A stretch of DNA of 64,000 bases from a phage. The translations under genes and the position numbers were made by a program. The notes below the pieces were generated by a model that saw only the letters and a program-made list of their open reading frames with translations, was not told the DNA's origin and ran no database searches. How positions within the stretch are numbered: position 1 is the stretch's first letter; the number at the start of each line of letters is the position of its first letter. Location: the NCBI GenBank assembly GCA_024571205.1, contig GCA_024571205.1_4523.1; one strand, written 5' to 3'. This document shows, one piece after another, positions 42 through 62,494 of this stretch.

Positions 42-1202
42 ATGAATACTTTTAAAATCGGAACGAATTTTGATTTAGCTCTTCTTGATAAAATCGTAGA
101 GCTCAATAAAACCTATCCTAATAGCTTGATAAACGAAGTATATGGCTCTACAAGAGAAATGGCTTTTGTAGCAGCCAGACCTGATTTTAGGCTTCCTGAC
201 GTTGACAAAAAGATGTTAGAAGACTACGTTAAACGTTGTAACGAATTAGGTATTTGCTTTAACTATACACTCAACACGATAAATCCTGGTTCAAAAAGAG
301 AACTAGTTGAGTGGAAGAAGAAAGCTATTCAGGATTATGTTCAGTATCTTTGGTCAATAGGCGTATGGCGTATTACTATCGCTAACCCTGTTGTTATGGA
401 AATTGTTCGTGAAGTCAATAAAGATATTGAGATTGAAGTTTCAACAATTCTACATGTCGATGCTGTAACTCAAATCAAATACTTGCATGACCAATATAAC
501 ATCAAAAAAGTCTGTTGCGGAATTCATAAGAACCGTTCAGTTTCTTTCCTGAAGCGTGCAGCAGAGTTTTGCAATAAGAACAATATAATATTTGAAGTTC
601 TTGTAAATGAGTTCTGTTCTAATGCTGGTAAAGGGTATACAACACATTGTAGCTATCGTGACTCTTGCTATATTTTCCATAGTACTGATGTTACCGCTGA
701 TGATGCTAAATCCTTAAATGGATATCCAATGCAGCACTGTATTAAAGCTCGTGATACAGACCCATTTAACTGGCTGAGAACTCGTTTTGTTCGTCCTCAA
801 GATTTGAAACTTTATAATGATATTGGTATCACTCAATTCAAAGTTTCAGGACGTACAGGTAGCACAGACTACATTTTGAAAGTTCTTGAAGCATACGCTT
901 CTGAAAAGTTTGAAGGTAATTTGTTAGAACTGTGGAAGCCTTTAGAGACTATTTTCACTCTTGAAAATGAGACTGAGTTTTCACATACAGTAAATATTGA
1001 AACCTCTTTGTTAGATGGCTTTTTAGAAAAAAGGTGGTTCAGACATCCAGATTTTGATTGTGCTAATGAAATCTGTGGGTCAACGTGTACATATTGTGAA
1101 AGGTATTATAAACGTCAATTATCTAAAAACGGGTTAGCAGAAAACTCCATATCTATTATTGATATAACTAACTCTGATGACGCTTTGAGGTACCCTGAAT
1201 GA
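42..1202 (+). CDS. U32-family protein (peptidase U32 / Fe-S O2-independent hydroxylase family), 386 aa
   Basis: Long ORF; motifs YTLNT, ITIANPVVMEIVRE, IEIEVST and Cys-rich FEVLVNEFCS..HCS..SCY resemble the U32 TIM-barrel core (recalled E. coli YegQ/TrhP: VVVN..DPGLIMLVRE..EIFVHGALC); C-terminal CGSTCTYC. Only 41 nt upstream are in the window. Confidence 0.55.
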   Translation: MNTFKIGTNFDLALLDKIVELNKTYPNSLINEVYGSTREMAFVAARPDFRLPDVDKKMLEDYVKRCNELGICFNYTLNTINPGSKRELVEWKKKAIQDYVQYLWSIGVWRITIANPVVMEIVREVNKDIEIEVSTILHVDAVTQIKYLHDQYNIKKVCCGIHKNRSVSFLKRAAEFCNKNNIIFEVLVNEFCSNAGKGYTTHCSYRDSCYIFHSTDVTADDAKSLNGYPMQHCIKARDTDPFNWLRTRFVRPQDLKLYNDIGITQFKVSGRTGSTDYILKVLEAYASEKFEGNLLELWKPLETIFTLENETEFSHTVNIETSLLDGFLEKRWFRHPDFDCANEICGSTCTYCERYYKRQLSKNGLAENSISIIDITNSDDALRYPE

Positions 1203-1438
1203 TTTCTAGAAAAAGTTTTAATTATAAACTTAACGAAGAGATTTTGACTATGAAACTGAACACTAACGAACAAATTCTTAAAAAGGCCCTTATGGGCCTG
1301 TTTGAAACCAAAGCGGCTAAAGTGATTAAAGAACCTGTTCAATTGGAATACTACACTGATGCATTCCTTCATAGTGTTCTTGGAAGTATAGATTCTGAAG
1401 CTTTACGTTATATCAACATTGTCAAGAAATTCAAATAA
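1199..1438 (+). CDS. hypothetical protein, 79 aa
   Basis: ATGA start/stop overlap with upstream gene; soluble, no recognisable motif; internal GGCCC-TTAT-GGGCC hairpin at 1285-1298. Confidence 0.45.
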   Translation: MISRKSFNYKLNEEILTMKLNTNEQILKKALMGLFETKAAKVIKEPVQLEYYTDAFLHSVLGSIDSEALRYINIVKKFK

Positions 1439-1480: not shown

Positions 1481-2197
1481 ATGGGAAAACATAACACAAT
1501 GAAATATATCAAAGCCGCAGATTTTCAAACCGCATTTAAAGCAGTCAATCGTGAAATTTTAGAAAACCCCGAATTCGTAACTGATTCTCGTATTGGACGT
1601 TGTAATGAAATTGGGTCTATGACAGTAGTTGTTGACACTCCATCATCATTCAAAATGACCGACCCACGTATTAACCGCATCTCTTATGAATATGCCGAAG
1701 ACTTCTGGAAGTTTATGATTTCTGGTGGTACCAACGCAGAAGAAGCGTTTAAGGCATATCCTAATGTCGCTAAATTTATTTCTAAACCAAAATCAGATGT
1801 TTTGCCGGCGAACTTCAACACTTTCTATGGCCCTCGCATTGCGGCCCAATTACCAACTCTTCTAAAAGAACTTAAAGAAAAACCTAACTCTCGAAGAGTT
1901 GTGTTCCAAATTCTAGAAAGTTCTGATCAGGCTTTGCTTGATTCGGACGAAACACTTGAATATCCATGTACTGACTCAGTAACTTATTATATTCGTGATG
2001 GTAAGCTTTATACCCACTGTCATATGCGTTCTCAGAACTGTGCTGTTGTTATGCAGTTGGATTTTTATCTCCAAGGAAAATTACTTCATTATATCGCTAA
2101 CGAATGCGGTGTAGAAGTTGGTGATTATACTCATACCATGGTAAGCGCCCATGTGTTTGAACGTGATTTTGATTATGTTAAAGGATTCCTTGACTAA
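1481..2197 (+). CDS. ThyA-superfamily deoxypyrimidylate hydroxymethylase-like protein (gene 42 candidate, dCMP hydroxymethylase)
   Basis: 238 aa; NSRR, catalytic-type Cys in EYPCTDSVTYYIRDGK, RSQN and an Asp (QLD) at the position that is Asn in thymidylate synthase and Asp in dCMP hydroxymethylase; sits upstream of uvsX as gene 42 does in T4. Confidence 0.7.
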   Translation: MGKHNTMKYIKAADFQTAFKAVNREILENPEFVTDSRIGRCNEIGSMTVVVDTPSSFKMTDPRINRISYEYAEDFWKFMISGGTNAEEAFKAYPNVAKFISKPKSDVLPANFNTFYGPRIAAQLPTLLKELKEKPNSRRVVFQILESSDQALLDSDETLEYPCTDSVTYYIRDGKLYTHCHMRSQNCAVVMQLDFYLQGKLLHYIANECGVEVGDYTHTMVSAHVFERDFDYVKGFLD

Positions 2198-3096
2198 TGG
2201 CTATTTTCCGCGTACCAATCTTGAGTATGCGGTCTTATGAAACTGGACAGTATGCTATCCTTAAGGATGGCAACTTCCAACTTCATTTGCACCGTGCTAA
2301 TCCGGGTGATGTGATTACATATCCACGTAATGCATCTGATATTAAAGAATGCGAACGTCTTTTCCCAGAATTTAAGTTTGTTCCATTATGGTATAAAGAT
2401 AACGCGTATAACACTCGTAAATATTTCTGGACTGAAAATGAATTTGTGGTTGATTCATTAATTGATTATTATGATTGTGATTTTCTAATCACAGATATCA
2501 CTGGTTATGGCGGCGCTTTTGATGTAGAATTCAATTTCAATATCACTGCAGACCCTAATAAACCACGTTTTTATATTGACGAATTCTTAAAAACCGATAT
2601 GTTGTCAGTTAATCGTTCACTTCAAACTACCGTGTTGAATGAACGTCAAAAAGAAGTGCTGGTTAACGCAGGTGCAGATGGTAATAAGATTATCGTAACT
2701 CAGAAAGTTATACGTCCTTCCATCATGCAGCGTCTTGTAGGTGATTTGGCTCCTATTCATCTAGATGGTATTTTTCATCCATTTCGAATTAGTGACCCAT
2801 GTTATCGTTTTGAACAAGTGGTTGAATGTGCAATTCAATTAGGTCAACCGCTTTATATAACCGATCCAAATAATAGCTTCGACAGAAATAAGTATCCTGA
2901 AGAAGCGCTGATTCGAATTTTTAAACCAACTAAAACTGAGTACTATCAAATTCTTAAAGGACGCCCGAAGATTCAATATTTCGAAAATCCTGAAGAAGTA
3001 TTCCATCCAGGTCTTGGTGAGTTCATCTACTTTAATGCTTTAATTTCTTCACCATATAATATACCTAAATACGAAGATGTCGTAATCGAGGAATAA
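2197..3096 (+). CDS. hypothetical protein, 299 aa (in the slot where T4 has beta-glucosyltransferase)
   Basis: Start overlaps upstream stop (TAATG); no motif recognised. Confidence 0.6.
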   Translation: MAIFRVPILSMRSYETGQYAILKDGNFQLHLHRANPGDVITYPRNASDIKECERLFPEFKFVPLWYKDNAYNTRKYFWTENEFVVDSLIDYYDCDFLITDITGYGGAFDVEFNFNITADPNKPRFYIDEFLKTDMLSVNRSLQTTVLNERQKEVLVNAGADGNKIIVTQKVIRPSIMQRLVGDLAPIHLDGIFHPFRISDPCYRFEQVVECAIQLGQPLYITDPNNSFDRNKYPEEALIRIFKPTKTEYYQILKGRPKIQYFENPEEVFHPGLGEFIYFNALISSPYNIPKYEDVVIEE

Positions 3097-7539: not shown

Positions 7540-7748
7540 ACATTGTAGTATTTAAACCATCAACATACGAATTTGCATCAACTACACAATGGAAAGCTCT
7601 TATTCAGGAAGGATGGGAACTAATGATGGACTGCGAAGCATCTGAAAAGTTTCCACACGGCAAAGTGGACTTCGTTAAATTTGCTGTACGTCCGACCAAA
7701 CGTCAAATTCGTCAAGAAAAACGCAAATTTCGCAAAAGTTTAAAATAA
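7536..7748 (+). CDS. hypothetical protein, 70 aa, basic C-terminus
   Basis: ATGA overlap with upstream gene; C-terminal RQIRQEKRKFRKSLK. Confidence 0.5.
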   Translation: MNIVVFKPSTYEFASTTQWKALIQEGWELMMDCEASEKFPHGKVDFVKFAVRPTKRQIRQEKRKFRKSLK

Positions 7749-7750
7749 CC

Positions 7751-7780
7751 GTTTACAAGCACCACATACTGTGTTACTAT
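7751..7780 (+). promoter_or_regulatory. T4-early-type promoter
   Basis: GTTTAC 7751, 18-nt spacer, tactat 7775-7780; precedes ATG 7809. Confidence 0.6.
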
Positions 7781-7808
7781 CTTTCTATCAACTACAGAGG
7801 AAATTGAA

Positions 7809-8177
7809 ATGAAAAAATTAATCGCTTTAGCAATGGTATTCGGATTAACTGGATGTGGTGCTCATGGCTTTATTCCTAATAACGTAGGGCAACTGATTTA
7901 CAATCCAAATGTTAAACAGTATGAACAACCTAAAGTTGAAGTGGAAGACCCGGTTACTGTAGGTAATCGAATGATTCAAGCTGATGAACGTGCTCAAAGA
8001 TATCGTGACTCTGATACCGTAGCATTGTCAAAAGAACAACGTGTTCAAGAGCATTGTTTACAGGCCACTGAAATCGCATTTATTCGTTATGTTGAAACAA
8101 CAGGTAAAGAGCCTACTCAGCAACAAATCATGGCTAACTACGTCCAATGTATTGAACGTTTAAACAAATTTAATTAA
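7809..8177 (+). CDS. putative lipoprotein, 122 aa
   Basis: N-terminal signal peptide with lipobox LTGC. Confidence 0.65.
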   Translation: MKKLIALAMVFGLTGCGAHGFIPNNVGQLIYNPNVKQYEQPKVEVEDPVTVGNRMIQADERAQRYRDSDTVALSKEQRVQEHCLQATEIAFIRYVETTGKEPTQQQIMANYVQCIERLNKFN

Positions 8178-8180
8178 TTA

Positions 8181-8210
8181 GTTTACATCCAATTTAAAAC
8201 AAGATACTAT
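8181..8210 (+). promoter_or_regulatory. T4-early-type promoter
   Basis: GTTTAC 8181, 18-nt spacer, tactat 8205-8210; precedes ATG 8239. Confidence 0.6.
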
Positions 8211-8238
8211 AAACATATCAAATCAAGAGGAAATTATC

Positions 8239-8487
8239 ATGGAATTATTAGTAGTTAGTTCAGTAGCAGTTTTGATCGCAGGTATCGGTTCAATTATCAT
8301 TTACATGTTGCCTTGGGTTATCGCACTTATTCGTGGCACCAAAAGCACAACAGCAATCTTCTTCGTATCCTTACTCTTTAACTGGACGATGATTGGATGG
8401 ATTGGAACTTTAATTTGGTCTATCGCAGCAGAAAAGAAATCTGCCCAACAGACACAACAAGTAATTATTATTCGCGAAAAAGAATAA
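8239..8487 (+). CDS. small two-pass membrane protein, superinfection-immunity (Imm)-like
   Basis: 82 aa, two hydrophobic helices; motif YMLPWVIALIRG..IFFVSLLFNWTMIGWIGTLIWS resembles the Imm-type superinfection immunity family pattern as I recall it. Confidence 0.55.
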   Translation: MELLVVSSVAVLIAGIGSIIIYMLPWVIALIRGTKSTTAIFFVSLLFNWTMIGWIGTLIWSIAAEKKSAQQTQQVIIIREKE

Positions 8488-8491
8488 AACA

Positions 8492-8521
8492 GTTTACAAC
8501 GTTGATAGGTCATGTTACTAT
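8492..8521 (+). promoter_or_regulatory. T4-early-type promoter with flanking near-inverted repeat
   Basis: GTTTAC 8492, 18-nt spacer, tactat 8516-8521; arms gttgataggtc / gacttatcaac. Confidence 0.6.
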
Positions 8522-8548
8522 AGACTTATCAACTAATGGAGAACAAAA

Positions 8549-8707
8549 ATGAAACCTTCAAACTACGCAGTAAAAATTTGGAACGAAGTTAACGGTAATC
8601 GTGATGAATTTTTCAAAGTCATGATTGAGAAATTAGGTAAAAGTTTTAGCATTACAGAACGCAATTATTACGCTATTAAATCCACCCAATATAATCGTTA
8701 TGCTTAA
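8549..8707 (+). CDS. hypothetical protein, 52 aa
   Basis: Below the ORF-track cutoff; RBS GGAGAAC 7 nt before ATG; follows a promoter. Confidence 0.5.
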   Translation: MKPSNYAVKIWNEVNGNRDEFFKVMIEKLGKSFSITERNYYAIKSTQYNRYA

Positions 8708-8717
8708 GGAGAATATC

Positions 8718-9011
8718 ATGAAAAAGTTAACATTAGCAGCAATCTTACTAGCAGTGTCATGTGCACCAGCTCCAGTTACTGCCGGTTATGACAAAGACCT
8801 CTGTGAATGGTCAATGTCAGCAAATCAAGAAGATGTTGAACATCAAATCTTTGCCGATATCATGAACATCACTAAACGTGATCGCCCTAATATGGTTAAT
8901 AAAGTTGTAGAACAACTTCAGTCTGGTGGTATCATGCAGTACAACTATGTTTTGTATTGTGACCCTAATTTCGATAACAAAGATATCGTAACTGAAATCA
9001 CAGGTGAATAA
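8718..9011 (+). CDS. putative secreted protein or lipoprotein, 97 aa
   Basis: Start chosen at MKKLTL after RBS AAGGAG; signal peptide with AVSC lipobox-like cysteine. Confidence 0.6.
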   Translation: MKKLTLAAILLAVSCAPAPVTAGYDKDLCEWSMSANQEDVEHQIFADIMNITKRDRPNMVNKVVEQLQSGGIMQYNYVLYCDPNFDNKDIVTEITGE

Positions 9012-9663
9012 TATGATTTATTATATGCACAAAAATCCACCGTTTAAATACGGTAAATTTCCTGATGCACAATGTTATAATATAACGCCTGATGAAAATA
9101 ACCGTGGATATCTTATTGGCACAATTTTTGTAATTGTTAAAGATAACGAAATCGTTGCCTGGGCAGATTTTAAAGGTACAACACATGATGTTAATCCGGT
9201 GCCTTTCACATATTACAATATAATGGATTTGGCATACGATTATAATTGGTTTAATCATGACACGTTGGCTTATATTGAAGGTGTAGGATTTGATATCTCT
9301 TATTCTAGTTATTCATTATGTCCTATGAGCCGAGCACACGGTAAAGATACCTCATATTTTTCATTTAGGAAACGTGTGAACTTCAAACGTAGCACAGAGT
9401 ATGTCGGTGGAATATTTGTTAAAGATAATCGAATTACTCGTATTAGTTACCCTTTGAGCTGTGGCCAAAAAGATATTGACGTCGATTTAGACTTCACTGA
9501 AAATGTCATTAATCATATTGCTTCCGTATATTTTGACATCGATGAAAAAATTGTAGTGTGCGGTTACGAATTGCCACCGGAAGAAAAGATCGAAGCAATT
9601 GAAGTCGAATTAAAAGTTTCTATTGATGACCAAATCTTTAACGCATTTATGAATCGAGGTTAA
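9004..9663 (+). CDS. hypothetical protein, 219 aa
   Basis: Long ORF, AT-rich, no recognised motif. Confidence 0.6.
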   Translation: MNNMIYYMHKNPPFKYGKFPDAQCYNITPDENNRGYLIGTIFVIVKDNEIVAWADFKGTTHDVNPVPFTYYNIMDLAYDYNWFNHDTLAYIEGVGFDISYSSYSLCPMSRAHGKDTSYFSFRKRVNFKRSTEYVGGIFVKDNRITRISYPLSCGQKDIDVDLDFTENVINHIASVYFDIDEKIVVCGYELPPEEKIEAIEVELKVSIDDQIFNAFMNRG

Positions 9664-9664
9664 T

Positions 9665-9862
9665 ATGATTACTGCAACTTGTGCCGGCTCAAAAATTGAT
9701 GTGTTTCAATTGTTTGAAGAATATGAAATTGTTTCTAAGAACAAAGACTTTATTCAAGTTCGTGCTGACGATGGTACTGTCTGGAACATCCCCCATTATA
9801 ACGACGAGACCTATGAAGTCACAGATGCAAATGGTGACAAAGCAATCTTTGTGATTGATTAA
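9665..9862 (+). CDS. hypothetical protein, 65 aa
   Basis: Tightly packed downstream ORF (TAATATG junction). Confidence 0.5.
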   Translation: MITATCAGSKIDVFQLFEEYEIVSKNKDFIQVRADDGTVWNIPHYNDETYEVTDANGDKAIFVID

Positions 9863-9881
9863 ATATACTCAGGAGGTACCT

Positions 9882-10349
9882 ATGGGTATTATTAACACTG
9901 CAATAGATTCAGTTTATGCATATAAGTTTATTCGACTAATGCAAAAACCTTTTACCGAATGGAAAGCATACGAAGCCAAAATCATCGACGAACGTGGAAG
10001 TGTTCTTAAACGTCCTTCTACTCCTGAAGAGAAAGCGGCTTATACACCTTTCCATGCTTCAGTTCGTTCAATGAAACGAATGTTGAGCACTGTTCCCGGT
10101 CTTAATGGAATGGCCTCAATGATGTCCGCCTGGAGTGCTGTAGCATCCCGCTATAACATCACAGAAGAACAACAGAAAGAAATATTTAAAGAACTCCCTT
10201 TATTTGAGGATATGGTTGCTGGTGATTCAGGTGGCAGTCCTCAAGCTATTGCATCAGGAACTACTACAGGTGCAGTTGTAAATAAAGGTCCAGAACAAAT
10301 TCCTTCCAAGAAAAGAAAGCGAATTAAAGTAAATATCAATAAGTTGTGA
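9882..10349 (+). CDS. hypothetical protein, 155 aa
   Basis: Start moved to ATG 9882, which follows RBS AGGAGG; basic C-terminus KKRKRIK. Confidence 0.55.
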   Translation: MGIINTAIDSVYAYKFIRLMQKPFTEWKAYEAKIIDERGSVLKRPSTPEEKAAYTPFHASVRSMKRMLSTVPGLNGMASMMSAWSAVASRYNITEEQQKEIFKELPLFEDMVAGDSGGSPQAIASGTTTGAVVNKGPEQIPSKKRKRIKVNINKL

Positions 10350-10356
10350 TATGATG

Positions 10357-10376
10357 GCCTTATTAATTTAAGGCCT
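10357..10376 (+). promoter_or_regulatory. stem-loop immediately upstream of the gene 61 RBS
   Basis: GGCCTTA-ttaatt-TAAGGCC, then tctGGAGaatactATG. Confidence 0.4.
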
Positions 10377-10388
10377 CTGGAGAATACT

Positions 10389-11411
10389 ATGGCTGAATGG
10401 ATAGATAATGAATTTGCTTATCGTGCGTTTTCTCACCTACCTCGTTTTAGACAAATCAATAATTCAAGCACATTTAAATTAACGTTTCGTTGTCCAGTTT
10501 GTGGCGACTCTCAGACAGATGCAATGAAAGCCCGCGGATGGTATTATGGCGGTACTCCAGGTAATGTGCATTGCTATAACTGTCAATATCATAATACGAT
10601 TTCCGGATACTTAAAAGAGTATGACGAAGAGCTTTATCGTGAATATCTAATGGAAGTTCGTAAAGAAAAAGCTAGAATGGAACCAAAGATTGAAAAGGTT
10701 CCTGAACATAAACCAGAACCGGAGAAAAAGACTATAAATTCTTTGCCGTCTTGTTCTCGTCTGGACAAGTTGCCTGAAGAGCATCCTATTGTGAAATATG
10801 TTAAGTCTCGGTGTATTCCTAAAGAATCGTGGAACAGATTATGGTTCACATTAGAATGGCCTAAATTGGTCAACAAGATTCAACCAGGCACGTATAAGAA
10901 AGAGATTCCAGAACCGCGTTTAGTGATTCCTATTTTTAATAAAGACGGGAAGGCTGAGTCATTTCAAGGACGTGCACTTCGCAAAGATGCTCCTCAGAAA
11001 TATATAACTATTAAAGCGTTTGAGTCTGCAACAAAAATTTATGGTGTTGAACGTGTTAAGGAAGGAGACGTCTGGGTAATGGAAGGCCCTATTGATAGTT
11101 TATTCATACCCAATGCAATCGCTATTACAGGCGGTTCAATAGATTTAGATGTGGTACCATTTAAAGAACGTCGGGTATGGGTGATGGATAATGAACCTAG
11201 GCATCCGGATACTATAGCTCGTATGAAGCGATTAGTAGATGCAGGCGAACGTGTTATGTTCTGGGACCGAGCTCCATGGAGTTCAAAGGATGTGAATGAT
11301 ATGGTAATGAAAGAAAATGCAACACCACAAGAAATTTTAGAATATATGAAACAGAATATTTCAAGTGGGTTGCATGCTAAAATGAGATTATCTCGTTATT
11401 CGAAGATTTAA
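10389..11411 (+). CDS. 61: gp61 DNA primase
   Basis: N-terminal zinc ribbon CPVCGDS..CYNC and TOPRIM-like C-terminal part; strong match to recalled T4 gp61. Confidence 0.9.
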   Translation: MAEWIDNEFAYRAFSHLPRFRQINNSSTFKLTFRCPVCGDSQTDAMKARGWYYGGTPGNVHCYNCQYHNTISGYLKEYDEELYREYLMEVRKEKARMEPKIEKVPEHKPEPEKKTINSLPSCSRLDKLPEEHPIVKYVKSRCIPKESWNRLWFTLEWPKLVNKIQPGTYKKEIPEPRLVIPIFNKDGKAESFQGRALRKDAPQKYITIKAFESATKIYGVERVKEGDVWVMEGPIDSLFIPNAIAITGGSIDLDVVPFKERRVWVMDNEPRHPDTIARMKRLVDAGERVMFWDRAPWSSKDVNDMVMKENATPQEILEYMKQNISSGLHAKMRLSRYSKI

Positions 11412-11605
11412 ACAAGCCCTATAATAGCAAAGGCCAAATCAACTACAGTATCCAATGGAACAGAAGGAACTATAATACCATGGGCAACTAACAATGGTGC
11501 AATCCCGAAGTTCCATGAAATAATGCCACCTACAACTATTGCGGCGATAGCAGTTTTCTTTTTATTGCCTTTAATAGCGTTGATTAACGATGGAAGTTTA
11601 AACAT
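11408..11605 (-). CDS. small hydrophobic membrane protein, 65 aa, convergent with gene 61
   Basis: Minus-strand ORF with strong RBS (taAGGAGatatt-ATG); two hydrophobic segments; LPSLINAIKGNKKK motif loosely Imm-like. Confidence 0.5.
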   Translation of the reverse strand: MFKLPSLINAIKGNKKKTAIAAIVVGGIISWNFGIAPLLVAHGIIVPSVPLDTVVDLAFAIIGLV

Positions 11606-11693
11606 AATATCTCCTTAGTTACCTATTATTTATTACGCTTTATAAAATTAATGTTAGAATTAACTCTCTTATACTGAATTGAAAGGAAAAATA

Positions 11694-12215
11694 ATGGCGC
11701 ACTTTAATGAATGTTCACAACTTATTTCTGGTGTTGATAAAGCAGAAGAAGCTTATTTTAATGCTCTGATTCACGAAGATAAAGACCCACTGCAGGTAAT
11801 GCTTGATATGCAGAAATCTTTACAGGTTCGTCTGGCAAATGACAAGCCTGAACATAACAAACATCCTGATGAATTGGCTACTGCTGGTGATGTTGTTGAT
11901 TGGCTGCGTAATCAGAAAGATTATATTGATGATGAATTCCGTGAACTGCTGACTTCACTTGGTGGTATGAGCAATGGTGAAAAAGCCGCTAGCAGTGTAT
12001 GGAAGCCATGGAAAGCACAACATGCTGAATATCGAAATCGTCGTATCGATGAACTGTCTCCTGAAGACCAGCTTGAAATTAAATTTGAAATGATTGATAT
12101 TCTGCATTTCGTTCTAAATATGTTCCAAGGTCTTGGTCTTTCTGCTGAAGAAATCTTTAAACTTTACTACTTGAAAAACCAACACAACTTTGAACGTCAG
12201 GATAATGGTTACTAA
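11694..12215 (+). CDS. 56: gp56 dCTPase/dUTPase (dCTP pyrophosphatase)
   Basis: MAHFNEC start after RBS AGGAAA; MazG-like motifs; matches recalled T4 gp56. Confidence 0.85.
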   Translation: MAHFNECSQLISGVDKAEEAYFNALIHEDKDPLQVMLDMQKSLQVRLANDKPEHNKHPDELATAGDVVDWLRNQKDYIDDEFRELLTSLGGMSNGEKAASSVWKPWKAQHAEYRNRRIDELSPEDQLEIKFEMIDILHFVLNMFQGLGLSAEEIFKLYYLKNQHNFERQDNGY

Positions 12216-12221
12216 TTAAGT

Positions 12222-12229
12222 TATAAATA
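12222..12229 (+). promoter_or_regulatory. late promoter TATAAATA upstream of soc
   Basis: Exact TATAAATA about 30 nt upstream of soc ATG. Confidence 0.5.
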
Positions 12230-12260
12230 CACCTGTAATTAAACAACAAAGGAGTTAATT

Positions 12261-12497
12261 ATGGGTGGTTATGTAAACATCAAAACCTTTACGCATCCTG
12301 CTGGTGAAGGCAAAGAAGTTAAAGGTATGGAAGTTTCTGTTCCGTTTGAGATTTATTCAAACGAACATCGGATTGCAGATTCTCATTATCAGACTTTCCC
12401 GTCTGAAAAAGCTGCTTACACTACTGTGGTGACTGACGCAGCAGATTGGCGTACTAAGAACGCTGCAATGTTTACCCCTACACCAGTAAGTGGTTAA
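12261..12497 (+). CDS. soc: Soc small outer capsid protein
   Basis: 78 aa; YVNIKTF..HYQTFPSEKAAYTTV matches recalled T4 Soc. Confidence 0.8.
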   Translation: MGGYVNIKTFTHPAGEGKEVKGMEVSVPFEIYSNEHRIADSHYQTFPSEKAAYTTVVTDAADWRTKNAAMFTPTPVSG

Positions 12498-12505
12498 ATA
12501 ATTTA

Positions 12506-12531
12506 AGGAATCCTTCGGGATTCCTTTTTTC
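12506..12531 (+). terminator. intrinsic terminator (UUCG tetraloop)
   Basis: AGGAATCCttcgGGATTCCT followed by TTTTTT. Confidence 0.75.
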
Positions 12532-12540
12532 GTTTCTAGA

Positions 12541-12570
12541 GTTTACATCCACTAAAAACTATGTTAAGAT
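12541..12570 (+). promoter_or_regulatory. T4-early-type promoter
   Basis: GTTTAC 12541, 18-nt spacer, taagat; precedes ATG 12599. Confidence 0.55.
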
Positions 12571-12598
12571 ATTCTTACTTACTCAAGAGGAGAACATT

Positions 12599-12826
12599 AT
12601 GTTAAATCGTTGGATTAAACCTAATAACACATTAGGCGCTTTGATTGCACAAGAAGTTTCGTTGAAATACGGACTTGGATATTATGATGACGTAGTCGTA
12701 CACTCATTCATGATGGATGGTGAAGACGTCAAATTTAATGCCGAAATCCGTTGGGATGATGGTGGTGTTCGTTTTGTTCGAGGAACAATTAATGCTTACG
12801 ATACTGAAGAAGTTATTTGCTGTTAA
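12599..12826 (+). CDS. hypothetical protein, 75 aa
   Basis: RBS GAGGAGAA; follows a promoter. Confidence 0.55.
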   Translation: MLNRWIKPNNTLGALIAQEVSLKYGLGYYDDVVVHSFMMDGEDVKFNAEIRWDDGGVRFVRGTINAYDTEEVICC

Positions 12827-12839
12827 ACCAGGCGAAGGT

Positions 12840-13028
12840 ATGATGCCTATTCCTGATACACACGAAAAAAGTTGGGAATACATTGGTGACGGCATGATGG
12901 AAGAAGTTATTCGTCCTAAGTCTGCTTCAAGCTCTTCAAGTTATAATCATTCATACGTATCGTCTTGGCCTGGTGATTCCGGGTCAAGTTATTCTGATTG
13001 TGGTTCAAGCTCAGGGAGCTGCGAATGA
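12840..13028 (+). CDS. hypothetical Ser-rich small protein, 62 aa
   Basis: Start trimmed to ATG 12840 (the track N-extension overlaps the previous gene); C-terminus SASSSSSYNHSYVSS..GSSSGSCE. Confidence 0.45.
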   Translation: MMPIPDTHEKSWEYIGDGMMEEVIRPKSASSSSSYNHSYVSSWPGDSGSSYSDCGSSSGSCE

Positions 13029-13204
13029 ACAAGATAGTTAAATGGTTTAAAAGCTGGGACGATGGTGTCGGTCCAGAAGATTGGTTAGATGTTCTTGAAG
13101 AGAATATGGCTAAAGAATTCCAGAAACATGAAGAAAAGCTCGTCGAAGATGAAGGCGAACGTATTGTAAAACTTTATATGGGTGAACCATCGAGGAAATT
13201 ATAA
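13025..13204 (+). CDS. hypothetical protein, 59 aa
   Basis: ATGA overlap with upstream stop; start MNKIVKWFK. Confidence 0.45.
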   Translation: MNKIVKWFKSWDDGVGPEDWLDVLEENMAKEFQKHEEKLVEDEGERIVKLYMGEPSRKL

Positions 13205-13668
13205 TGGATGCTATGTTATTTAAAATGTATTTGCTTGAAGCCAAGTCATTTAAACATATACCAGTAGAAGATAAGACTCCACTAGAAATAGCTATTCTCA
13301 TTAACAAAAGTCTAAATAATCCGCAATATATCGTAGAAGAATTCTGCAAATTGCAGATTCCTAAAGGTTACAAAATTCGTGTAGAGCGAGTTGGAGCTAT
13401 TACTCATTCTAAAAATTCTCCGTTTAGTCTTGAAGAAGGCATAAAGGACTTAGGTTATGAATCTACAGAAAATGCTGTTTATGTGAATCCTGAAAAGCGT
13501 TTAGACCTGTTTGAAAAGCGAGACCATACGTATTTTGCCAAAAAATACTTTATTACATCATTAGCAGATTTAATCCATTTGCAACGAGCTATTTGGAAAT
13601 TTTTTAAGACAAAAGGTGTAGCACTAGAAACATTCTCTGAACCTGCTAGTTTTTATTTAGGTGAATAA
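13204..13668 (+). CDS. hypothetical protein, 154 aa
   Basis: ORF in a tightly coupled array. Confidence 0.6.
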   Translation: MDAMLFKMYLLEAKSFKHIPVEDKTPLEIAILINKSLNNPQYIVEEFCKLQIPKGYKIRVERVGAITHSKNSPFSLEEGIKDLGYESTENAVYVNPEKRLDLFEKRDHTYFAKKYFITSLADLIHLQRAIWKFFKTKGVALETFSEPASFYLGE

Positions 13669-13849
13669 TATGGACCTTATGAGTATGTTTGATGAGCCTG
13701 AAGTCAAGGCTCCTAAAGTGCATCATAGTGAACTTGTTGATGAACTAGATAGTATTATACAACGACACGGCTTTAGTTTACCTGTTGAAGCCCTGAAAGA
13801 CCTTGCCTCTTATTATGACGACCCTCCACCATGGAGTCCTTGGAAATGA
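13661..13849 (+). CDS. hypothetical protein, 62 aa
   Basis: Overlaps upstream stop; acidic. Confidence 0.45.
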   Translation: MNNMDLMSMFDEPEVKAPKVHHSELVDELDSIIQRHGFSLPVEALKDLASYYDDPPPWSPWK

Positions 13850-14010
13850 AAGAGAAATTTAAAGAGAAATTCTTACTAGAAATCAAGGAAAAAGACTTTG
13901 AGACATGGTATCGAATGGTGAAAGGGTTAACATTGCTTTTTAAAGCATCGTTATTCATGTTAGAACAACCTGGCCCTGATGGACCTTTAGTAGGAAAGCT
14001 TAAAAAGTAG
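13846..14010 (+). CDS. hypothetical protein, 54 aa
   Basis: ATGA overlap; below the ORF-track cutoff. Confidence 0.4.
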   Translation: MKEKFKEKFLLEIKEKDFETWYRMVKGLTLLFKASLFMLEQPGPDGPLVGKLKK

Positions 14011-14038
14011 TTTACATTCCCTCCTCTCGTGTTATGAT
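14010..14038 (+). promoter_or_regulatory. T4-early-type promoter
   Basis: GTTTAC 14010, 17-nt spacer, tatgat 14033-14038; precedes ATG 14066. Confidence 0.55.
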
Positions 14039-14065
14039 AGGCTTATCTTTAAATGGAGGTCTATC

Positions 14066-14647
14066 ATGACATGTCAATCTGAACTTCAAGAACGCGAATA
14101 TCTCGCAGCACTAATTGATGATAAATTCACTAAACAAGAACAAAACATTCTCTGGGCTTGCACTGATTATAAGGAAGACCCAGATTTCCACTATGAATTA
14201 GACCGTCTTGTTCGTAAGCATATGACTTCTACAGTACCAGTAGAACTCTACCGTGGTGTAACTCCAGAAGAAGTAGAACATCTTTCATTGTTATCTGTAG
14301 GATGCCATTGGTCTCCTGGACGAGTAACATCGTTTACAACAGACTTTGGTACGGCCAGACAGTTCTCTGGGAGTTGGGAATATCAAACGTACACTATTCT
14401 TAGTCTCAGGAATGCTCCGTTCATTTTCGATTACTACCAAAACATGGTTAACATTGTACTCGCCGGAAAGAACCCTAAGCATGTTATGGAAGAAAAACGT
14501 GTTGACGTCCTAGATATGATTGAATCTGAACAAGAATACATGGTCTCAGGTATCTCTAGATTTGAGATTGTAGAAATTGAAGACTTAGAATATGACCCTT
14601 TATCTCGGTTATACAAAATCATTCATTTGAAAATGTTGAATTTTTAG
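14066..14647 (+). CDS. Mod-type ADP-ribosyltransferase (R-S-E class), 193 aa
   Basis: R (ELYRGV), S-x-T (TSFTT) and E-x-E (EQEYMVSG) motifs; tandem paralog follows, as with T4 modB/modA. Confidence 0.75.
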   Translation: MTCQSELQEREYLAALIDDKFTKQEQNILWACTDYKEDPDFHYELDRLVRKHMTSTVPVELYRGVTPEEVEHLSLLSVGCHWSPGRVTSFTTDFGTARQFSGSWEYQTYTILSLRNAPFIFDYYQNMVNIVLAGKNPKHVMEEKRVDVLDMIESEQEYMVSGISRFEIVEIEDLEYDPLSRLYKIIHLKMLNF

Positions 14648-14676
14648 TGTACAAACTCTTCCGATGATGATACTAT
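14647..14676 (+). promoter_or_regulatory. T4-early-type promoter (GTGTAC variant)
   Basis: gtgtac, 18-nt spacer, tactat; precedes ATG 14705. Confidence 0.5.
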
Positions 14677-14704
14677 ACCTTTATCAACCACAGGAGAAAC
14701 CTAA

Positions 14705-15313
14705 ATGTTTATGCCGTATAACGAGTGTGAAATTGAAGAAATGGTTCGTCGTGCTCAATGCCCTGAATATCAAGATGAATTGCAGTACGAAATTGATAGT
14801 CAATTCAGCGACATTGAACAAAGTGTACTATGGCAGTGTATGGAAAACAAGCCTGATAGCATCCAACAAGATTTAAGTGCAATTGTTCGTAGAAATTGGA
14901 CGTCTTCTGTTCCTGAGACAATGTATCGTGGAATCTCTAAGAAAACTATGGCCACACTCGATGATAAAGGCATTGGTAGTATTATTAAATTTGACAGAGT
15001 AATGAGCTTTAGTCCAGTGTTCGGTGTAGCACGTAACTTTGCTTCGTATAATTTTTACGGAACATTTAATATGTTCTGCATCAAAGATGCACCATTTGCT
15101 TTCAACTTCCGTGAACATATGCTTAACATGATTCTGGCTGCGCCATCTTGTGAGTTCAATGGAGCTTTCCCTGAAGCGACAAGACGGTCTAATGCTAGAC
15201 TTATATCTGACGAATGTGAATTTATGCTCCCTATAGGGACTACACTGCGTGTAGATTCTATTATTCAAGATGGAAATTATACAATCTGGAATCTGTCTAT
15301 TGTCGGTTACTGA
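14705..15313 (+). CDS. Mod-type ADP-ribosyltransferase (R-S-E class), 202 aa
   Basis: TMYRGIS, MSFSP, ECEFMLP motifs; paralog of 14066-14647. Confidence 0.75.
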   Translation: MFMPYNECEIEEMVRRAQCPEYQDELQYEIDSQFSDIEQSVLWQCMENKPDSIQQDLSAIVRRNWTSSVPETMYRGISKKTMATLDDKGIGSIIKFDRVMSFSPVFGVARNFASYNFYGTFNMFCIKDAPFAFNFREHMLNMILAAPSCEFNGAFPEATRRSNARLISDECEFMLPIGTTLRVDSIIQDGNYTIWNLSIVGY

Positions 15314-15387
15314 CTGGATTGGAATAACCGGATGGAACTCAGAACCATTATAACACATAAAAAATTAAAGCATTTTACGAAAAAAGA

Positions 15388-15416
15388 GTGTACACTACCT
15401 GAGGGCATGATATTAT
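15388..15416 (+). promoter_or_regulatory. T4-early-type promoter (GTGTAC variant)
   Basis: gtgtac 15388, 17-nt spacer, tattat 15411-15416. Confidence 0.5.
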
Positions 15417-15466
15417 AAGCTTATCAGCTAAATGACCTTAACGTCCGTAAGACAGAGGAAAATATT

Positions 15467-16213: not shown

Positions 16214-16215
16214 TT

Positions 16216-17837: not shown

Positions 17838-17846
17838 GAGAAAATT

Positions 17847-18524: not shown

Positions 18525-18529
18525 AATCA

Positions 18530-18559
18530 GTTTACAACCAAGGATGGTTGGAGTATAAT
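18530..18559 (+). promoter_or_regulatory. T4-early-type promoter
   Basis: GTTTAC 18530, 18-nt spacer, tataat 18554-18559. Confidence 0.6.
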
Positions 18560-18590
18560 CTTTCTATCTTAACCAAACAGGAAAAACATT

Positions 18591-19085: not shown

Positions 19086-19086
19086 T

Positions 19087-19117: not shown

Positions 19118-19146
19118 GAATTCAACTTAAACAAAGAGAGAAAATT

Positions 19147-19632: not shown

Positions 19633-19641
19633 GGAATTATT

Positions 19642-20061: not shown

Positions 20062-20065
20062 AGTT

Positions 20066-23864: not shown

Positions 23865-24965
23865 ATGAAAGTTATGTTTATCCCATCTCGTGCAGTCCCA
23901 TTTAATCCTGAACGTGTACAAGGTGGTCTTGAAGCAGTACATTTAAATGTGTTGAAATATTTAGTTTCTATCGGTGCCGATATTGATTATATCGGTTTTG
24001 ATAATGACACATTTGGTGATTGGAAGGTTAATCATCATCCTGTTGGTCATCTGACTAAATTCAGTCTAGGTATGAGTTATACTATGGCTCGTAAGATTGT
24101 TGAACTAGCCGGCATTAATGAGTACGATTTCGTTGTTACAATGGAACCGACCAAACTAACCGTTCAGGCAATTAAAGACGCAGGTCTCTCTAAAGTTCAT
24201 AAGAATTTTATGGCAACACCATTTGAACCGGTATCTCGTGGTATTGTTCAAATTTGGGACCAGACTATTCAAATTCATAAGAACGGTGGTAAGAGTTATG
24301 CTCCTACTAAAGCCTTCCGTGAATTTGAACGCAAATATTGTTATATGACTTCAGGTCTGACTGACAAAATTGATTATGATTATTGGCGAGCAAATCCGTT
24401 GTTTGAAGCCGAAGATTATCCGGTTATTTGTTTGAATGAGAAACCTGAAGTTCTTCCGGCGACTGATCTGATTATTAGTGCACAACGTTATGACACTAAA
24501 ATGCGTCGTACTGATGTTGCTCTTGAAGCGATTAAAGCACTAGGCGAAAATGGTGCAGGATACTGTCCTAGTAAATGGGCACCACCGGCTAAGTATCCTG
24601 TTATTATTGATGCTCCACACAGTGAAATCATGGAACGTCTTAAAACAGCTAAAGCACTTATCAATACGTGTCCTGACACGGGTACGGTAGAGAATAGTTC
24701 TATTGAAGCCATCTCTAAAGGTGTCCCTGTGATTCAGTTAGTTTTTAAGGATTATCCGCACGCGACATTCGAATATGACCCAGATACTGTGCGTGTAGAA
24801 ATTGATTCCTCTACTCCTAAGAAAGAAGTAGTTGCGCTTTACACAAAAGCTGTATTAGAATTCACTGACACATACGAAGCTCGAGTTAAACGTGCTGAAG
24901 CCGTATGGAAGAAGTATAACAGAGATGCAGTTGTTGCGATGTGGGATAAAATCTTCACAGCGTAA
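23865..24965 (+). CDS. GT-B fold glycosyltransferase-like protein, 366 aa
   Basis: C-terminal GTVENSSIEAISKGVPVI resembles the GT-B E..(7)..E / EA..G.PVI donor-binding motif; N-terminal MKVMFIPS..GGLE; inserted between gene 39 and rIIA. Confidence 0.6.
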   Translation: MKVMFIPSRAVPFNPERVQGGLEAVHLNVLKYLVSIGADIDYIGFDNDTFGDWKVNHHPVGHLTKFSLGMSYTMARKIVELAGINEYDFVVTMEPTKLTVQAIKDAGLSKVHKNFMATPFEPVSRGIVQIWDQTIQIHKNGGKSYAPTKAFREFERKYCYMTSGLTDKIDYDYWRANPLFEAEDYPVICLNEKPEVLPATDLIISAQRYDTKMRRTDVALEAIKALGENGAGYCPSKWAPPAKYPVIIDAPHSEIMERLKTAKALINTCPDTGTVENSSIEAISKGVPVIQLVFKDYPHATFEYDPDTVRVEIDSSTPKKEVVALYTKAVLEFTDTYEARVKRAEAVWKKYNRDAVVAMWDKIFTA

Positions 24966-60920: not shown

Positions 60921-61913
60921 ATGTTACCTGTTGTCGGAAAACTTATTTCTCCAAAAGAACTGGCTGAGATTATTCCTTTGTCGGAAGCTTACGCATCACA
61001 AGTGGCTTCTCATCGCGAACAAGTTAATTCGATTATGAATGGTGAAGACCCACGCAAACTTATTGTTGTAGGTCCTTGTTCAATTCATGACCCTATTGCT
61101 GCTGTTGAATACGGCAAACGTCTGGCTGAACTTCAAACTCGTCTTCCTAATGTTCTGTTAGTGATGCGCGTTTATTTTGAAAAGCCTCGAACTACCGTAG
61201 GTTGGAAAGGTCTTGTAAATGATCCATATCTTGACGGAAGTTTTGATATGAACCACGGTCTTATAGTTGCACGAACATTGTGTCGTAAACTTCTACGTAT
61301 GGGACTTCCATTAGCAACTGAAGTATTAGACCCATTCACGATTAAGTATCTTTCTGGTATTTTCTCATGGGTTGCTATTGGCGCCCGTACGACTGAAAGT
61401 CAGACACATCGTGAAATTGCTTCAGGTCTACCGATGTGCGTAGGCTTCAAGAACGCAACCAATGGTTCTATTAAAGTAGCTACAGACGCGATGTATAGTG
61501 CCGCCTGGCCTCATCGGTATATTGGTATGGACGTCGATGGTACTGTAGGCATTGTTGAAGCTGAAGGTAATCAGAATACGCATATCGTATTGCGTGGCGG
61601 GACCAACGGCCCGAACTATCATTCTTCTGATATTCAAGAAGCTTCTAACAAAGCAAGGGCAGTAGGTCTGAATCATTATGTAATGGTTGACTGTAGCCAT
61701 GCAAACGCTGAAGGGCATTATAGCAATCAAATTGGTATTGGTAAAAATTTAGCAGCTAATGATTTGGTCAAAGGAATTATGATAGAATCGTTCCTACATG
61801 AAGGAAATCAAAAAATTTCTGATAATATGTCCTATGGCGTTTCCGTTACCGATGCGTGCATCAGTTGGGAACAAACTAAAGAGCTGTTAACTTATATTAA
61901 TAAGGTTCAATAA
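60921..61913 (+). CDS. 3-deoxy-D-arabino-heptulosonate-7-phosphate (DAHP) synthase, class I (AroG/AroF/AroH-like)
   Basis: 330 aa; KLIVVGPCSIHDP, VMRVYFEKPRTTVGWKGLVNDP, GARTTESQTHREIASGL, MIESFLHEGNQ match the recalled E. coli AroG core nearly motif for motif. Confidence 0.85.
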   Translation: MLPVVGKLISPKELAEIIPLSEAYASQVASHREQVNSIMNGEDPRKLIVVGPCSIHDPIAAVEYGKRLAELQTRLPNVLLVMRVYFEKPRTTVGWKGLVNDPYLDGSFDMNHGLIVARTLCRKLLRMGLPLATEVLDPFTIKYLSGIFSWVAIGARTTESQTHREIASGLPMCVGFKNATNGSIKVATDAMYSAAWPHRYIGMDVDGTVGIVEAEGNQNTHIVLRGGTNGPNYHSSDIQEASNKARAVGLNHYVMVDCSHANAEGHYSNQIGIGKNLAANDLVKGIMIESFLHEGNQKISDNMSYGVSVTDACISWEQTKELLTYINKVQ

Positions 61914-62494
61914 TGAAAGCTAGCACATACCTTCAGATTGCATATCTGATTTCTCAAGAATCAAAATGTTGTTCATGGAAAGTTGGTGCCGTCATTGAAA
62001 AAGATGGACGCATTATCTCTACTGGATATAACGGTTCACCTGCAGGTGGCGTTAACTGTTGCGAACATGCATCTGAAAATGGTTGGTTGAAGAATAAACC
62101 AATCCCAGTCATCGTTGCTGGACATAAAGAAGGCACTACAGCATTTGGACGGGTAGATAATTTTGTTTTAGCCAAAGAACATCGAGCTGCTCATAGTGCA
62201 TGGTCTGCTAATAATGAAATCCATGCAGAATTGAATGCAATTTTGTTTGCCGCTCGTAAAGGTAATTCTATTGAAGGTGCTACGTTATATACGACGCTTT
62301 CTCCATGTCCTGATTGTACTAAAGCTATTACGCAGTCAGGTATTAAAAAGGTCGTATACGCAGAATTATACGACCGATCTCCTGAAAATTGGGCAGATAT
62401 TCTAAAACAAGCTGGTATTGAAGTAATTCAGTACTCTCGTAATAATCTTCGTTCTCTGAATTGGGAACAAATCCGAAACTTTTGTGGTGAATAA
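61913..62494 (+). CDS. cd: dCMP deaminase
   Basis: 193 aa; zinc-binding HAELNAI and SPCPDC motifs. Confidence 0.9.
   Translation: MKASTYLQIAYLISQESKCCSWKVGAVIEKDGRIISTGYNGSPAGGVNCCEHASENGWLKNKPIPVIVAGHKEGTTAFGRVDNFVLAKEHRAAHSAWSANNEIHAELNAILFAARKGNSIEGATLYTTLSPCPDCTKAITQSGIKKVVYAELYDRSPENWADILKQAGIEVIQYSRNNLRSLNWEQIRNFCGE

Follow-up and report, generated by a model that had tools for sequence, protein, structure and literature searches.

The stretch of phage DNA studied here (64,000 nucleotides, hereafter the window; GenBank assembly GCA_024571205.1, contig GCA_024571205.1_4523.1) carries at positions 42..1202 of its plus strand an ATG-initiated open reading frame (ORF) of 386 residues, in which an earlier note had recognized the core motifs of the U32 protein family; the ORF is present exactly as described there, with every motif quoted. 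Over its first 4 kb the window matches Escherichia phage CAU_ECP01 at 100% identity and many Mosigviruses at 98-99%, and the 42..1202 protein is 99.2% identical to RB69p050. Judged by these identities, the window comes from an RB69-like Mosigvirus, and the 42..1202 gene is the ortholog of RB69p050, whose product we call gp50. From comparative genomics we infer, with moderate confidence, that gp50 is an O2-independent, prephenate-dependent hydroxylase acting in phage DNA modification. The genes on which this argument turns are the following.

42..1202, plus strand: U32-family Fe-S protein, proposed O2-independent, prephenate-dependent pyrimidine C5 hydroxylase (PF01136, AlphaFold2 (AF2) model, hhalign with RlhA, identity to RB69)
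1199..1438, plus strand: orf79, a small conserved protein (RB69p049 ortholog) whose start overlaps the U32 stop; no Pfam match
1481..2197, plus strand: ThyA-superfamily 5-hydroxy-dCMP synthase, dependent on flavin mononucleotide (FMN) and O2 (RB69 gp48 ortholog, 98.7% identity; PF00303; activity in PMC13326640)
2197..3096, plus strand: gp46:47-type glycosyltransferase (GT), proposed first arabinosyltransferase on 5-hydroxycytosine (5hoC) (PHROG 3891; role proposed in PMC13326640)
3098..3646, plus strand: gp45-type P-loop nucleotide kinase, thymidylate-kinase-like (PHROG 761; weak dTMP-kinase match)
11694..12215, plus strand: dCTP pyrophosphatase of the gp56 type, which removes dCTP and supplies dCMP (tblastn with the CAU_ECP01 protein, 100% identity)
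23865..24965, plus strand: RB69p003-type second arabinosyltransferase (100% identity to the ORF that CAU_ECP01 has in the place of RB69p003; role as suggested by Table 1 of PMC13326640)
60921..61913, plus strand: type I-alpha 3-deoxy-D-arabinoheptulosonate 7-phosphate (DAHP) synthase, AroF/G/H-like (PF00793, E=9e-75; TIGR00034, 427 bits, cutoff 173)
61913..62494, plus strand: dCMP deaminase, cd (annotation and a 100% tblastn match)

The arabinosyl-5-hydroxycytosine cluster

The RB69 gene order is gene 43, arabinose 5-phosphate (A5P) isomerase, p053:52 (sugar kinase/nucleotidyltransferase), p051 (phosphatase), p050 (U32), p049, p048 (ThyA-like), p047:46 (glycosyltransferase), p045 (kinase) and uvsX. 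The U32 gene lies inside this conserved cluster between gene 43 and uvsX, with the same order in 17 T4-like loci, and it is the arabinosyl-5hoC gene cluster that occupies the gene 43-gene 42 interval of the RB69-type genome. The earlier placement of the ORF 'where T4 carries imm' is right for position only, since imm itself is kept elsewhere in the window (8239..8487). Public records mostly label the U32 gene product 'peptidase'.

All cytosine of RB69 DNA is replaced by mono- or di-arabinosylated 5-hydroxycytosine (Lee et al., NAR 2026, PMC13326640). The ThyA homolog gp48 turns dCMP into 5-hydroxy-dCMP (5hodCMP), binds FMN and incorporates 18O from 18O2 into its product, and gp48 plus a kinase is enough for 5-hydroxydeoxycytidine (5hodC) formation in E. 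coli (PMC13326640); a crystal structure and an in vitro confirmation of O2 as the oxygen source are credited there to He et al. The gene beside U32 in the window, which had been taken for dCMP-hydroxymethylase-like, thus turns out to be 98.7% identical to an experimentally shown 5-hydroxy-dCMP synthase. Because this ThyA homolog is a known O2- and FMN-dependent hydroxylase, the best reading of the U32 protein is a parallel, oxygen-independent route, in preference to an upstream partner of a hydroxymethylase; of the earlier reading we retain, on comparative-genomic grounds, a probable Fe-S hydroxylase-type U32 enzyme acting on a pyrimidine for DNA, and give up the hydroxymethylase partnership.

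The locus had also been put forward as an undescribed system. The arabinosyl-5-hydroxycytosine modification itself has already been described, whereas in the papers covered RB69p050 is given no role beyond a guessed reductase: it appears in PMC13326640 in Table 1 only, as 'Sugar or heterocycle reductase', from a fold match to 5d88, and the terms U32, prephenate, chorismate and DAHP are absent from that paper. In a genome paper, 'peptidase_U32' and 'DAHP synthetase' ORFs are given as unrelated features (PMC8022965). Our literature search, which did not cover He et al. 2026 and Mahler et al. 2025, found no paper tying phage U32, chorismate mutase (CM) or DAHP synthase (DAHPS) to DNA hydroxylation or anaerobiosis.

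Family membership, fold and conserved cysteines

The 42..1202 protein matches PF01136 (Peptidase_U32) over residues 94-286 (E=7.3e-11; 42.2 bits, gathering cutoff 22.4), homologs from other phages also pass this cutoff, and PHROG 5757 is matched from end to end (E=6.6e-267). An AF2 model built on 34 homologs is confident (predicted local distance difference test 89.7, predicted template-modelling (TM) score 0.89), with alternating strand and helix elements, and its best Foldseek match in the PDB is 5d88 (E=8.9e-8, target-normalised TM score 0.69), the remaining matches being generic TIM barrels. This entry (Mk0906) is the only solved U32 crystal structure; a sequence search of the PDB with the phage protein returned no match. 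Both by profile and by its TIM-barrel fold the phage protein is therefore a U32-superfamily member, and the two checks that the earlier note had suggested, a Pfam profile search and a structure prediction, came out in favour of its assignment. The cysteines it had pointed out are real and conserved.

Ten cysteines (C158, C177, C192, C203, C209, C233, C340, C345, C349 and C352) are invariant in the 34 homologs. Among 123 representatives with 27-50% identity, conservation is 99-100% for C192, C203 and C233 and 93-94% for the four C-terminal cysteines; most have a cysteine 5 or 7 residues past C203, and the C-terminal motif reads Cx(3-4)Cx(2-3)Cx2C. The central spacing across the clade is C-x(3-10)-C-x(5/7)-C-x(19-24)-C; the pattern of UbiU is CX6CX16CX38C. 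When the phage U32 profile was aligned with the four E. coli U32 proteins using hhalign, the probability was 79% for RlhA (residues 54-285), 9% for TrhP and 3% for UbiU, and the invariant C203/C209 superposed on C169/C176 of RlhA. These two RlhA residues are essential, as are its C-terminal cysteines, prephenate synthesis and Fe-S biogenesis (Kimura et al., PMC5727448), and additional C-terminal cysteines are likewise conserved in the phage protein.

No second Pfam domain, including Peptidase_U32_C, was found in this single-domain 386-residue protein, and no SCP2-like or UbiT-type neighbour was seen in the gene neighbourhoods examined. A single domain with no accessory substrate-handling module fits a small soluble substrate. 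U32 is also the most conserved protein of the cluster, with 82-89% identity across genera as compared with 65-79% for the DNA polymerase.

Proposed substitution of U32 for the ThyA-like enzyme

A HMMER search of 1.84 billion cluster representatives gave 1,187 matches at E<=1e-3 and 111 at E<=1e-30, the best being mostly full-length (~350-390 residues). The phmmer matches are representatives of the clade itself, and the abundant canonical U32 families were not recovered; on these searches the clade is small, essentially phage-borne and well separated from the abundant cellular U32 families. Cultured phages (50,697 records) contributed 222 matches, all with at least 80% identity and all from T4-like phages of Enterobacterales and Shewanella, while relatives with 48-58% identity came from metagenomes only. 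The metagenomic contigs, some of them 150-470 kb long, are those of unrelated phages equipped with Pol III alpha replication modules, holins and terminases, and their U32 genes neighbour dCMP deaminase, thymidylate-kinase-like kinases, uracil-DNA glycosylase, MazG/dUTPase_2, NT5C, deoxynucleoside kinase (dNK) and dUTPase/DCD. In cellular genomes the clade occurs in 6 of ~100,000 species (Erysipelotrichales, Bacillota, two Romboutsia metagenome-assembled genomes (MAGs), a BRC1 MAG and Phocaeicola faecalis), which we take to be anaerobes or uncultured MAG lineages; three of the six contigs hold the same phage-type gene cassettes.

ORFs were called in 41 viral and 7 metagenomic loci and then compared with profiles made from the proteins of the RB69 cluster. 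In each of the 17 T4-like loci, U32 is accompanied by the ThyA-like synthase, the gp46:47 GT, the gp45 kinase and sugar-activation genes. The non-T4-like set comprises 33 loci, which fall into 25 lineages when U32 is grouped at 90% identity. Here no match to the ThyA-like profile appeared within ±10 kb of U32, even at E<=10, and the partner genes recur: gp46:47 GT homologs in 23 loci, often directly upstream of U32, a gp45-type kinase in 25, a sugar activator of the p052:53 type in 15 and the A5P isomerase in 9. Since GT, kinase and sugar genes stand beside U32 without a ThyA-like gene, U32 would supply the hydroxyl handle that the ThyA-like enzyme gives elsewhere, and this is our main argument. 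One recurrent cassette, made up of a MazG-like dNTPase, a kinase, a GT, U32 and Pol III alpha, maps by analogy one-to-one onto the logic of T4 (gp56, gp1, glucosyltransferase and gp42), with U32 in the slot of the base-modifying enzyme. In another, U32 is accompanied by a DNA glycosyltransferase of the TAGT family (33.9 bits, cutoff 27.5) and by UDP-galactopyranose mutase.

Genes of presumed prephenate supply

Prephenate is the demonstrated oxygen donor for UbiU/V (PMC10990095), and both RlhA and TrhP have a genetic requirement for it (PMC10990095; PMC5727448). The DAHP synthase that the earlier note had reported at 60921..61913 is a genuine AroF/G/H type, as judged by its TIGR00034 score. In Serratia phage LC53, the gene that separates U32 from the ThyA-like gene encodes a CM (CM_2, 44.6 bits, cutoff 27), and a CM-only profile with domain coordinates located one at this position in 13 of the 17 T4-like loci. 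Among the non-T4-like lineages, a stand-alone CM directly follows U32 in two, a DAHPS-CM fusion stands next to U32 or one gene off in three (CM_2 38.7 bits; DAHPS models 164 bits versus 56 bits for 3-deoxy-D-manno-octulosonate 8-phosphate synthase, KDO8PS), and a type I-beta DAHPS adjoins U32 in two (237 versus 63 bits). Three different placements of prephenate-supply genes with the U32 clade would be hard to explain otherwise.

The two genes also have similar distributions. DAHPS is present in 213 and U32 in 222 of the 50,697 phage records, with a nearly identical genus breakdown (DAHPS/U32: Escherichia 125/137, Klebsiella 25/26, Shigella 12/14, Proteus 7/7, Serratia 6/7 and Enterobacter 4/4), the co-occurrence being judged by genus counts and two complete-genome controls. 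The metabolic coupling of U32 and DAHPS suggested earlier is thus borne out as linkage and co-distribution across phages, from which we infer the use of prephenate by gp50.

The DAHP_synth_1 genes were also considered as KDO8P synthases, with A5P isomerase and KdsC-like phosphatases nearby. This assignment was rejected, as the DAHPS models scored 150-454 bits versus 56-63 bits for KDO8PS, and some of the genes are fused to CM. In the window, the DAHP synthase stop overlaps the start of cd (61913), which puts an aromatic-pathway enzyme within a nucleotide-metabolism transcription unit, between pseT and cd.

Oxygen and anaerobic replication capacity

The ThyA-like synthase was found in 374 phage records, including 57 of Acinetobacter and ~20 of Rhizobium phages, plus Agrobacterium phages, and none of the phages of these three genera is among the U32 matches listed. 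Their hosts are aerobes; the hosts of the U32-carrying phages are facultative or obligate anaerobes. In Acinetobacter phage fHyAci03 (Lazarusvirus) and E. coli Dhakavirus UGJNEcP4, exactly the U32(+CM/orf79) segment is missing from an otherwise intact arabinosylation cluster, the phosphatase gene abutting the ThyA-like gene in the former phage and the gp45-type kinase gene that precedes the ThyA-like gene in the latter. Whole-genome tblastn of both phages recovered the ThyA-like gene and the GT, and no U32, DAHPS, CM, orf79, NrdD or NrdG. RB69 in turn has U32, nrdD and nrdG, and the RB69-like window has U32 and DAHPS. NrdD by itself is widespread (2,911 phage records), including hundreds of T4-likes with 95-99% identity to RB69 NrdD and no U32; T4-like phages with 5-hydroxymethylcytosine (hmC) have NrdD and no U32. 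Taken together, the U32-less controls and the hmC T4-likes indicate that U32/DAHPS occur only where 5hoC chemistry coincides with anaerobic replication capacity.

DLP3 is reported to form tri-arabinosyl-5hoC although its gene cluster has no listed U32 gene (PMC13326640), so U32 is dispensable for the sugar pathway. The Lazarusvirus, Dhakavirus and DLP3 clusters place U32 outside the core set needed for aerobic modification and make it an accessory module.

In Dhakavirus UGJNEcP4 (OV877765.1, loci L064-L067), only small ORFs lie between an nrdH-like gene and gene 49, with no nrdD or nrdG. From this gene content, anaerobic replication of this phage is predicted to be poor relative to Mosigviruses.

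Proposed pathway and its strength

We propose the following pathway. Early in infection, the dCTPase (11694..12215) would convert dCTP to dCMP, which gp48 would hydroxylate using FMN when O2 is present. When O2 is absent, the Fe-S cluster(s) of gp50 would oxidise the cytosine ring, and decarboxylating prephenate would give a hydroxide to C5, as proposed for UbiU/V (PMC10990095). The phage DAHPS, together with the CM that follows U32 in most other genera, would push the host shikimate flux to prephenate, the mutase step in the window phage falling to host PheA/TyrA. Kinases would then bring 5hodCMP to the triphosphate, the polymerase would insert it, and gp46:47 and the RB69p003-type GT (23865..24965) would attach arabinose. 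As dCTP is destroyed by the phage dCTPase, without an anaerobic route replication in the anoxic gut would be deprived of any cytosine nucleotide.

The assignment of dCMP as the exact substrate of gp50 is made with somewhat less confidence than the hydroxylase role itself, and dCTP or cytosine in DNA is less likely. For the wider clade, we put at about even chances a virus-encoded, prephenate-driven, O2-independent hydroxylase of a DNA precursor that is the sole source of 5-hydroxypyrimidine in a large set of uncultivated anaerobe-associated phages and a backup in the enterobacterial T4-likes. The modified bases of those uncultivated phages would perhaps carry arabinose, galactofuranose, another glycosylation or an O-methyl group.

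Several observations weigh against the proposed hydroxylase. Similarity to the characterised prephenate-dependent U32 hydroxylases (RlhA, TrhP, UbiU/UbiV) is remote, and no equivalog-level NCBIfam match to them was found, the sole match being UbiU with 18.5 bits, far below its cutoff of 440. The canonical four-Cys [4Fe-4S] motif of the family is CX6CX15CX3/4C (PMC6747719), and the window protein departs from it with a central spacing of C-x10-C-x5-C-x23-C, for which reason we call its putative Fe-S motif a variant and not a match. Direct hydroxylase activity in vitro has been reconstituted for no U32 protein (PMC10990095). No chorismate mutase was found in the window phage, which would thus depend on host PheA/TyrA; Dhakaviruses infect E. 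coli without U32, so the gene is not universally required in facultative anaerobes; the absence of a ThyA-like gene in the non-T4-like phages covers ±10 kb around U32 only; and gp46:47 as first arabinosyltransferase is itself proposed.

Alternative functions

The likeliest alternative, although we consider it improbable, is a prephenate-dependent hydroxylase with another target (dUMP or another nucleotide, a further base position or a quinone-like aromatic) and a minor or condition-specific product. The sequence does not constrain the substrate, U32 enzymes act on quite different aromatic rings (PMC10990095), a uracil substrate would agree with the neighbouring dCMP deaminase and dUTPase/DCD genes, and some cassettes have a guanylate-kinase-methyltransferase fusion instead of a GT beside U32. 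However, U32 among T4-likes occurs only in 5hoC-making genomes, its partners in other phages are homologs of the GT whose proposed substrate is 5hoC, only cytosine is replaced in RB69 virion DNA, which came from aerobic growth (PMC13326640), and the neighbourhoods examined showed no lipid-handling partner of the UbiT/SCP2 type. It is rather improbable that gp50 is instead a sugar-branch enzyme or a redox helper, for example a 'sugar or heterocycle reductase', as Table 1 of PMC13326640 has it from fold matches, or an Fe-S flavin reductase feeding reduced FMN to the ThyA-like hydroxylase. Two conserved Cys clusters would suit electron transfer, and U32 is placed between the sugar-activation genes and gp48; yet DLP3 forms its tri-arabinosylated base without a listed U32 gene, the Acinetobacter and Dhakavirus clusters miss exactly the U32(+CM) segment, and gp48 with a kinase suffices for 5hodC in E. 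coli (PMC13326640). A reductase would also leave the recurrent CM/DAHPS linkage unexplained, and some U32 cassettes contain no ThyA-like partner to help.

Slightly more improbable still is the hydroxylation of host or phage RNA, which the earlier note had entertained, with tRNA U34 converted to 5-hydroxyuridine (ho5U) as by TrhP, or rRNA C2501 to 5-hydroxycytidine (ho5C) as by RlhA, and the cluster position of the gene being coincidental. RNAs are the only known nucleic-acid substrates of U32 enzymes (PMC5727448; PMC10990095), the closest remote alignment is with RlhA, and T4-like phages encode tRNAs. Gene context disfavours this target, since dozens of unrelated phages pair U32 with dCMP deaminase, MazG/dUTPase, dNK, NT5C, TAGT and gp46:47-like GT, and the distribution of U32 tracks 5hoC chemistry and not tRNA genes; moreover, the phage protein has neither a second domain nor the C-terminal extensions of RlhA (653 residues) and TrhP (453 residues). 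Finally, a U32 peptidase or collagenase-like protease has a very small probability: 'peptidase' stands in most records as the historical family name, and no catalytic peptidase residues are defined for the U32 family. The characterised members are Fe-S hydroxylation factors (PMC10990095; PMC5727448; PMC6747719), and the two invariant Cys clusters and the nucleotide/shikimate gene context would make no sense for a protease.

Comparison with known systems

RlhA (YdcP), the E. coli 5-hydroxycytidine synthase for 23S rRNA C2501, has in common with gp50 the U32 domain and a cytosine C5 hydroxylation, proposed in the case of gp50. The two differ in architecture, RlhA having large C-terminal regions and acting on one rRNA residue, whereas gp50 is compact and stands in a deoxynucleotide/DNA-modification context; beyond the hhalign match there is no phmmer-level relationship, and the Cys spacing differs. 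The pairs TrhP/TrhO and UbiU-UbiV/UbiH-I-F each combine an O2-independent (U32, prephenate) with an O2-dependent route, and the same logic is proposed here for gp50/gp48. Unlike in those pairs, both phage enzymes are virus-encoded and adjacent, the proposed substrate is a deoxynucleotide, and the phages have DAHPS/CM supply genes of their own. The phage protein is an equivalog of neither TrhP nor UbiU-UbiV, and no UbiT-like or second-subunit partner is evident.

The ThyA-like 5hodCMP synthases of RB69 (gp48), DLP3 (gp80) and HY126 are proposed to share product and arabinosylation pathway with gp50 and are adjacent to U32 in T4-likes. The chemistry would differ: gp48 has a ThyA fold, uses FMN and O2 and has demonstrated activity, whereas gp50 would be a U32 TIM barrel with a putative Fe-S cluster and presumed use of prephenate. 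A precedent for T4-likes holding an aerobic and an anaerobic enzyme for one DNA-precursor step is given by NrdAB/NrdDG, which catalyse another reaction and belong to other families. The presence of NrdDG matches that of U32 plus DAHPS among the 5hoC genomes checked, although NrdDG is also found in many hmC phages without U32.

Further observations on the loci

The small gene orf79, between U32 and the ThyA-like gene of the window, was tried as a cryptic chorismate mutase and rejected, as BLASTP, tblastn and Pfam searches were negative, the LC53 CM is unlike it, and hhalign against a CM profile gave a probability of 0.14%. In four loci (L012, L018, L021 and L025), orf79 homologs are placed between U32 and CM. 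Its invariant residues are D54, H58, R70 and N73, its public labels ('P-loop NTPase' and 'RNA polymerase binding protein') are erroneous, and it could be an accessory factor of U32. The LC53 CM ORF (L002:10158-10502) begins with 'RRINHTMNELV', like the orf79 N-terminus, and a deletion appears, from this resemblance, to have joined the orf79 start to CM.

A Pfam scan of the proposed arabinosyltransferases at 2197..3096 and 23865..24965 gave no match for either. Several GenBank records tag the 2197..3096 product as 'RNA polymerase binding protein', probably a propagated annotation error. Relative to CAU_ECP01 (PQ572755.1, ~7800-25000), the window is imperfectly collinear, with ~25-190 bp offsets beyond ~7 kb, and its imm and imm.1 have only ~94% identity to those of that phage. 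These differences indicate probable local mosaicism around the gene 61/imm region.

Some of the non-T4-like cassettes contain genes that suggest other end products. At L009:5777-14179 (L031 is similar), the order is kinase, gp46:47-like GT, U32, TAGT-family GT, dUTPase/DCD and, further on, UDP-galactopyranose mutase, from which galactofuranosylated 5-hydroxypyrimidine DNA is predicted without a nearby ThyA homolog; for comparison, the DNA of Rhizobium phage RL38J1 contains hexosylated 5hoC. At L057:3044-7137, L056:6929-11086 and L004:5135-9098 (also in L005 and L054), GP88 (PF17338), a guanylate-kinase plus S-adenosylmethionine (SAM)-methyltransferase fusion, a ~270-residue protein and U32 stand together, on contigs that look cellular (a Phocaeicola faecalis isolate, a BRC1 MAG and Bacillota MAGs). 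By analogy with the conversion of tRNA ho5U to 5-methoxyuridine (mo5U), this cassette suggests hydroxylation of a nucleoside monophosphate (NMP) followed by O-methylation, possibly to a 5-methoxypyrimidine nucleotide.

Downstream of the GP88 cassette (L004:9116-15428; the same in L005 and L054) follow NT5C, a PnuC-like transporter, a deoxynucleoside kinase, an AlaX-like tRNA-synt_2c protein, a radical-SAM/SPASM enzyme, a very divergent second U32 paralog (377 residues, 21-25% identical) and a nucleoside 2-deoxyribosyltransferase; the two U32 proteins of this locus recall the UbiU/UbiV and TrhP1/TrhP2 pairs. In L038, L041-L047 (~7600-9000, minus strand), L053, L055 and L058, one or two RimK-type ATP-grasp genes (in tandem in L038 and L041-L047) lie just upstream of U32, on phage contigs of 127-294 kb with the order U32, CM, GT, NTK, HAD, GT2 and kinase, and these enzymes may append a peptide or a single amino acid to the modification.

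Implications

If the proposed function of gp50 is correct, the replication in the anoxic gut of phages in which O2-dependent flavin chemistry (5hoC) has taken the place of folate chemistry (hmC) would be explained, and a specific, testable role would fall to RB69p050, a highly conserved gene without an assigned function in PMC13326640. The enzyme class is known; what would be new is the viral clade, the role in DNA modification, the self-supplied prephenate and the backup to an O2-dependent enzyme. The chemistry in which prephenate serves as oxygen donor would be extended from RNA and quinones to DNA precursors, gp50 would be the first of the U32 enzymes to act on a deoxynucleotide, and such a small soluble substrate could permit an in vitro assay of U32 hydroxylases.

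The DAHP synthase and chorismate mutase of T4-likes, earlier regarded as oddities, would likewise be accounted for, and these would be the first phages to rewire the shikimate pathway for the supply of an organic oxygen donor. The combination of U32, GT and kinase without ThyA would become a marker of hypermodified DNA in uncultivated phages of anaerobes, relevant to restriction/CRISPR evasion and to the choice of gut-active therapeutic phages.

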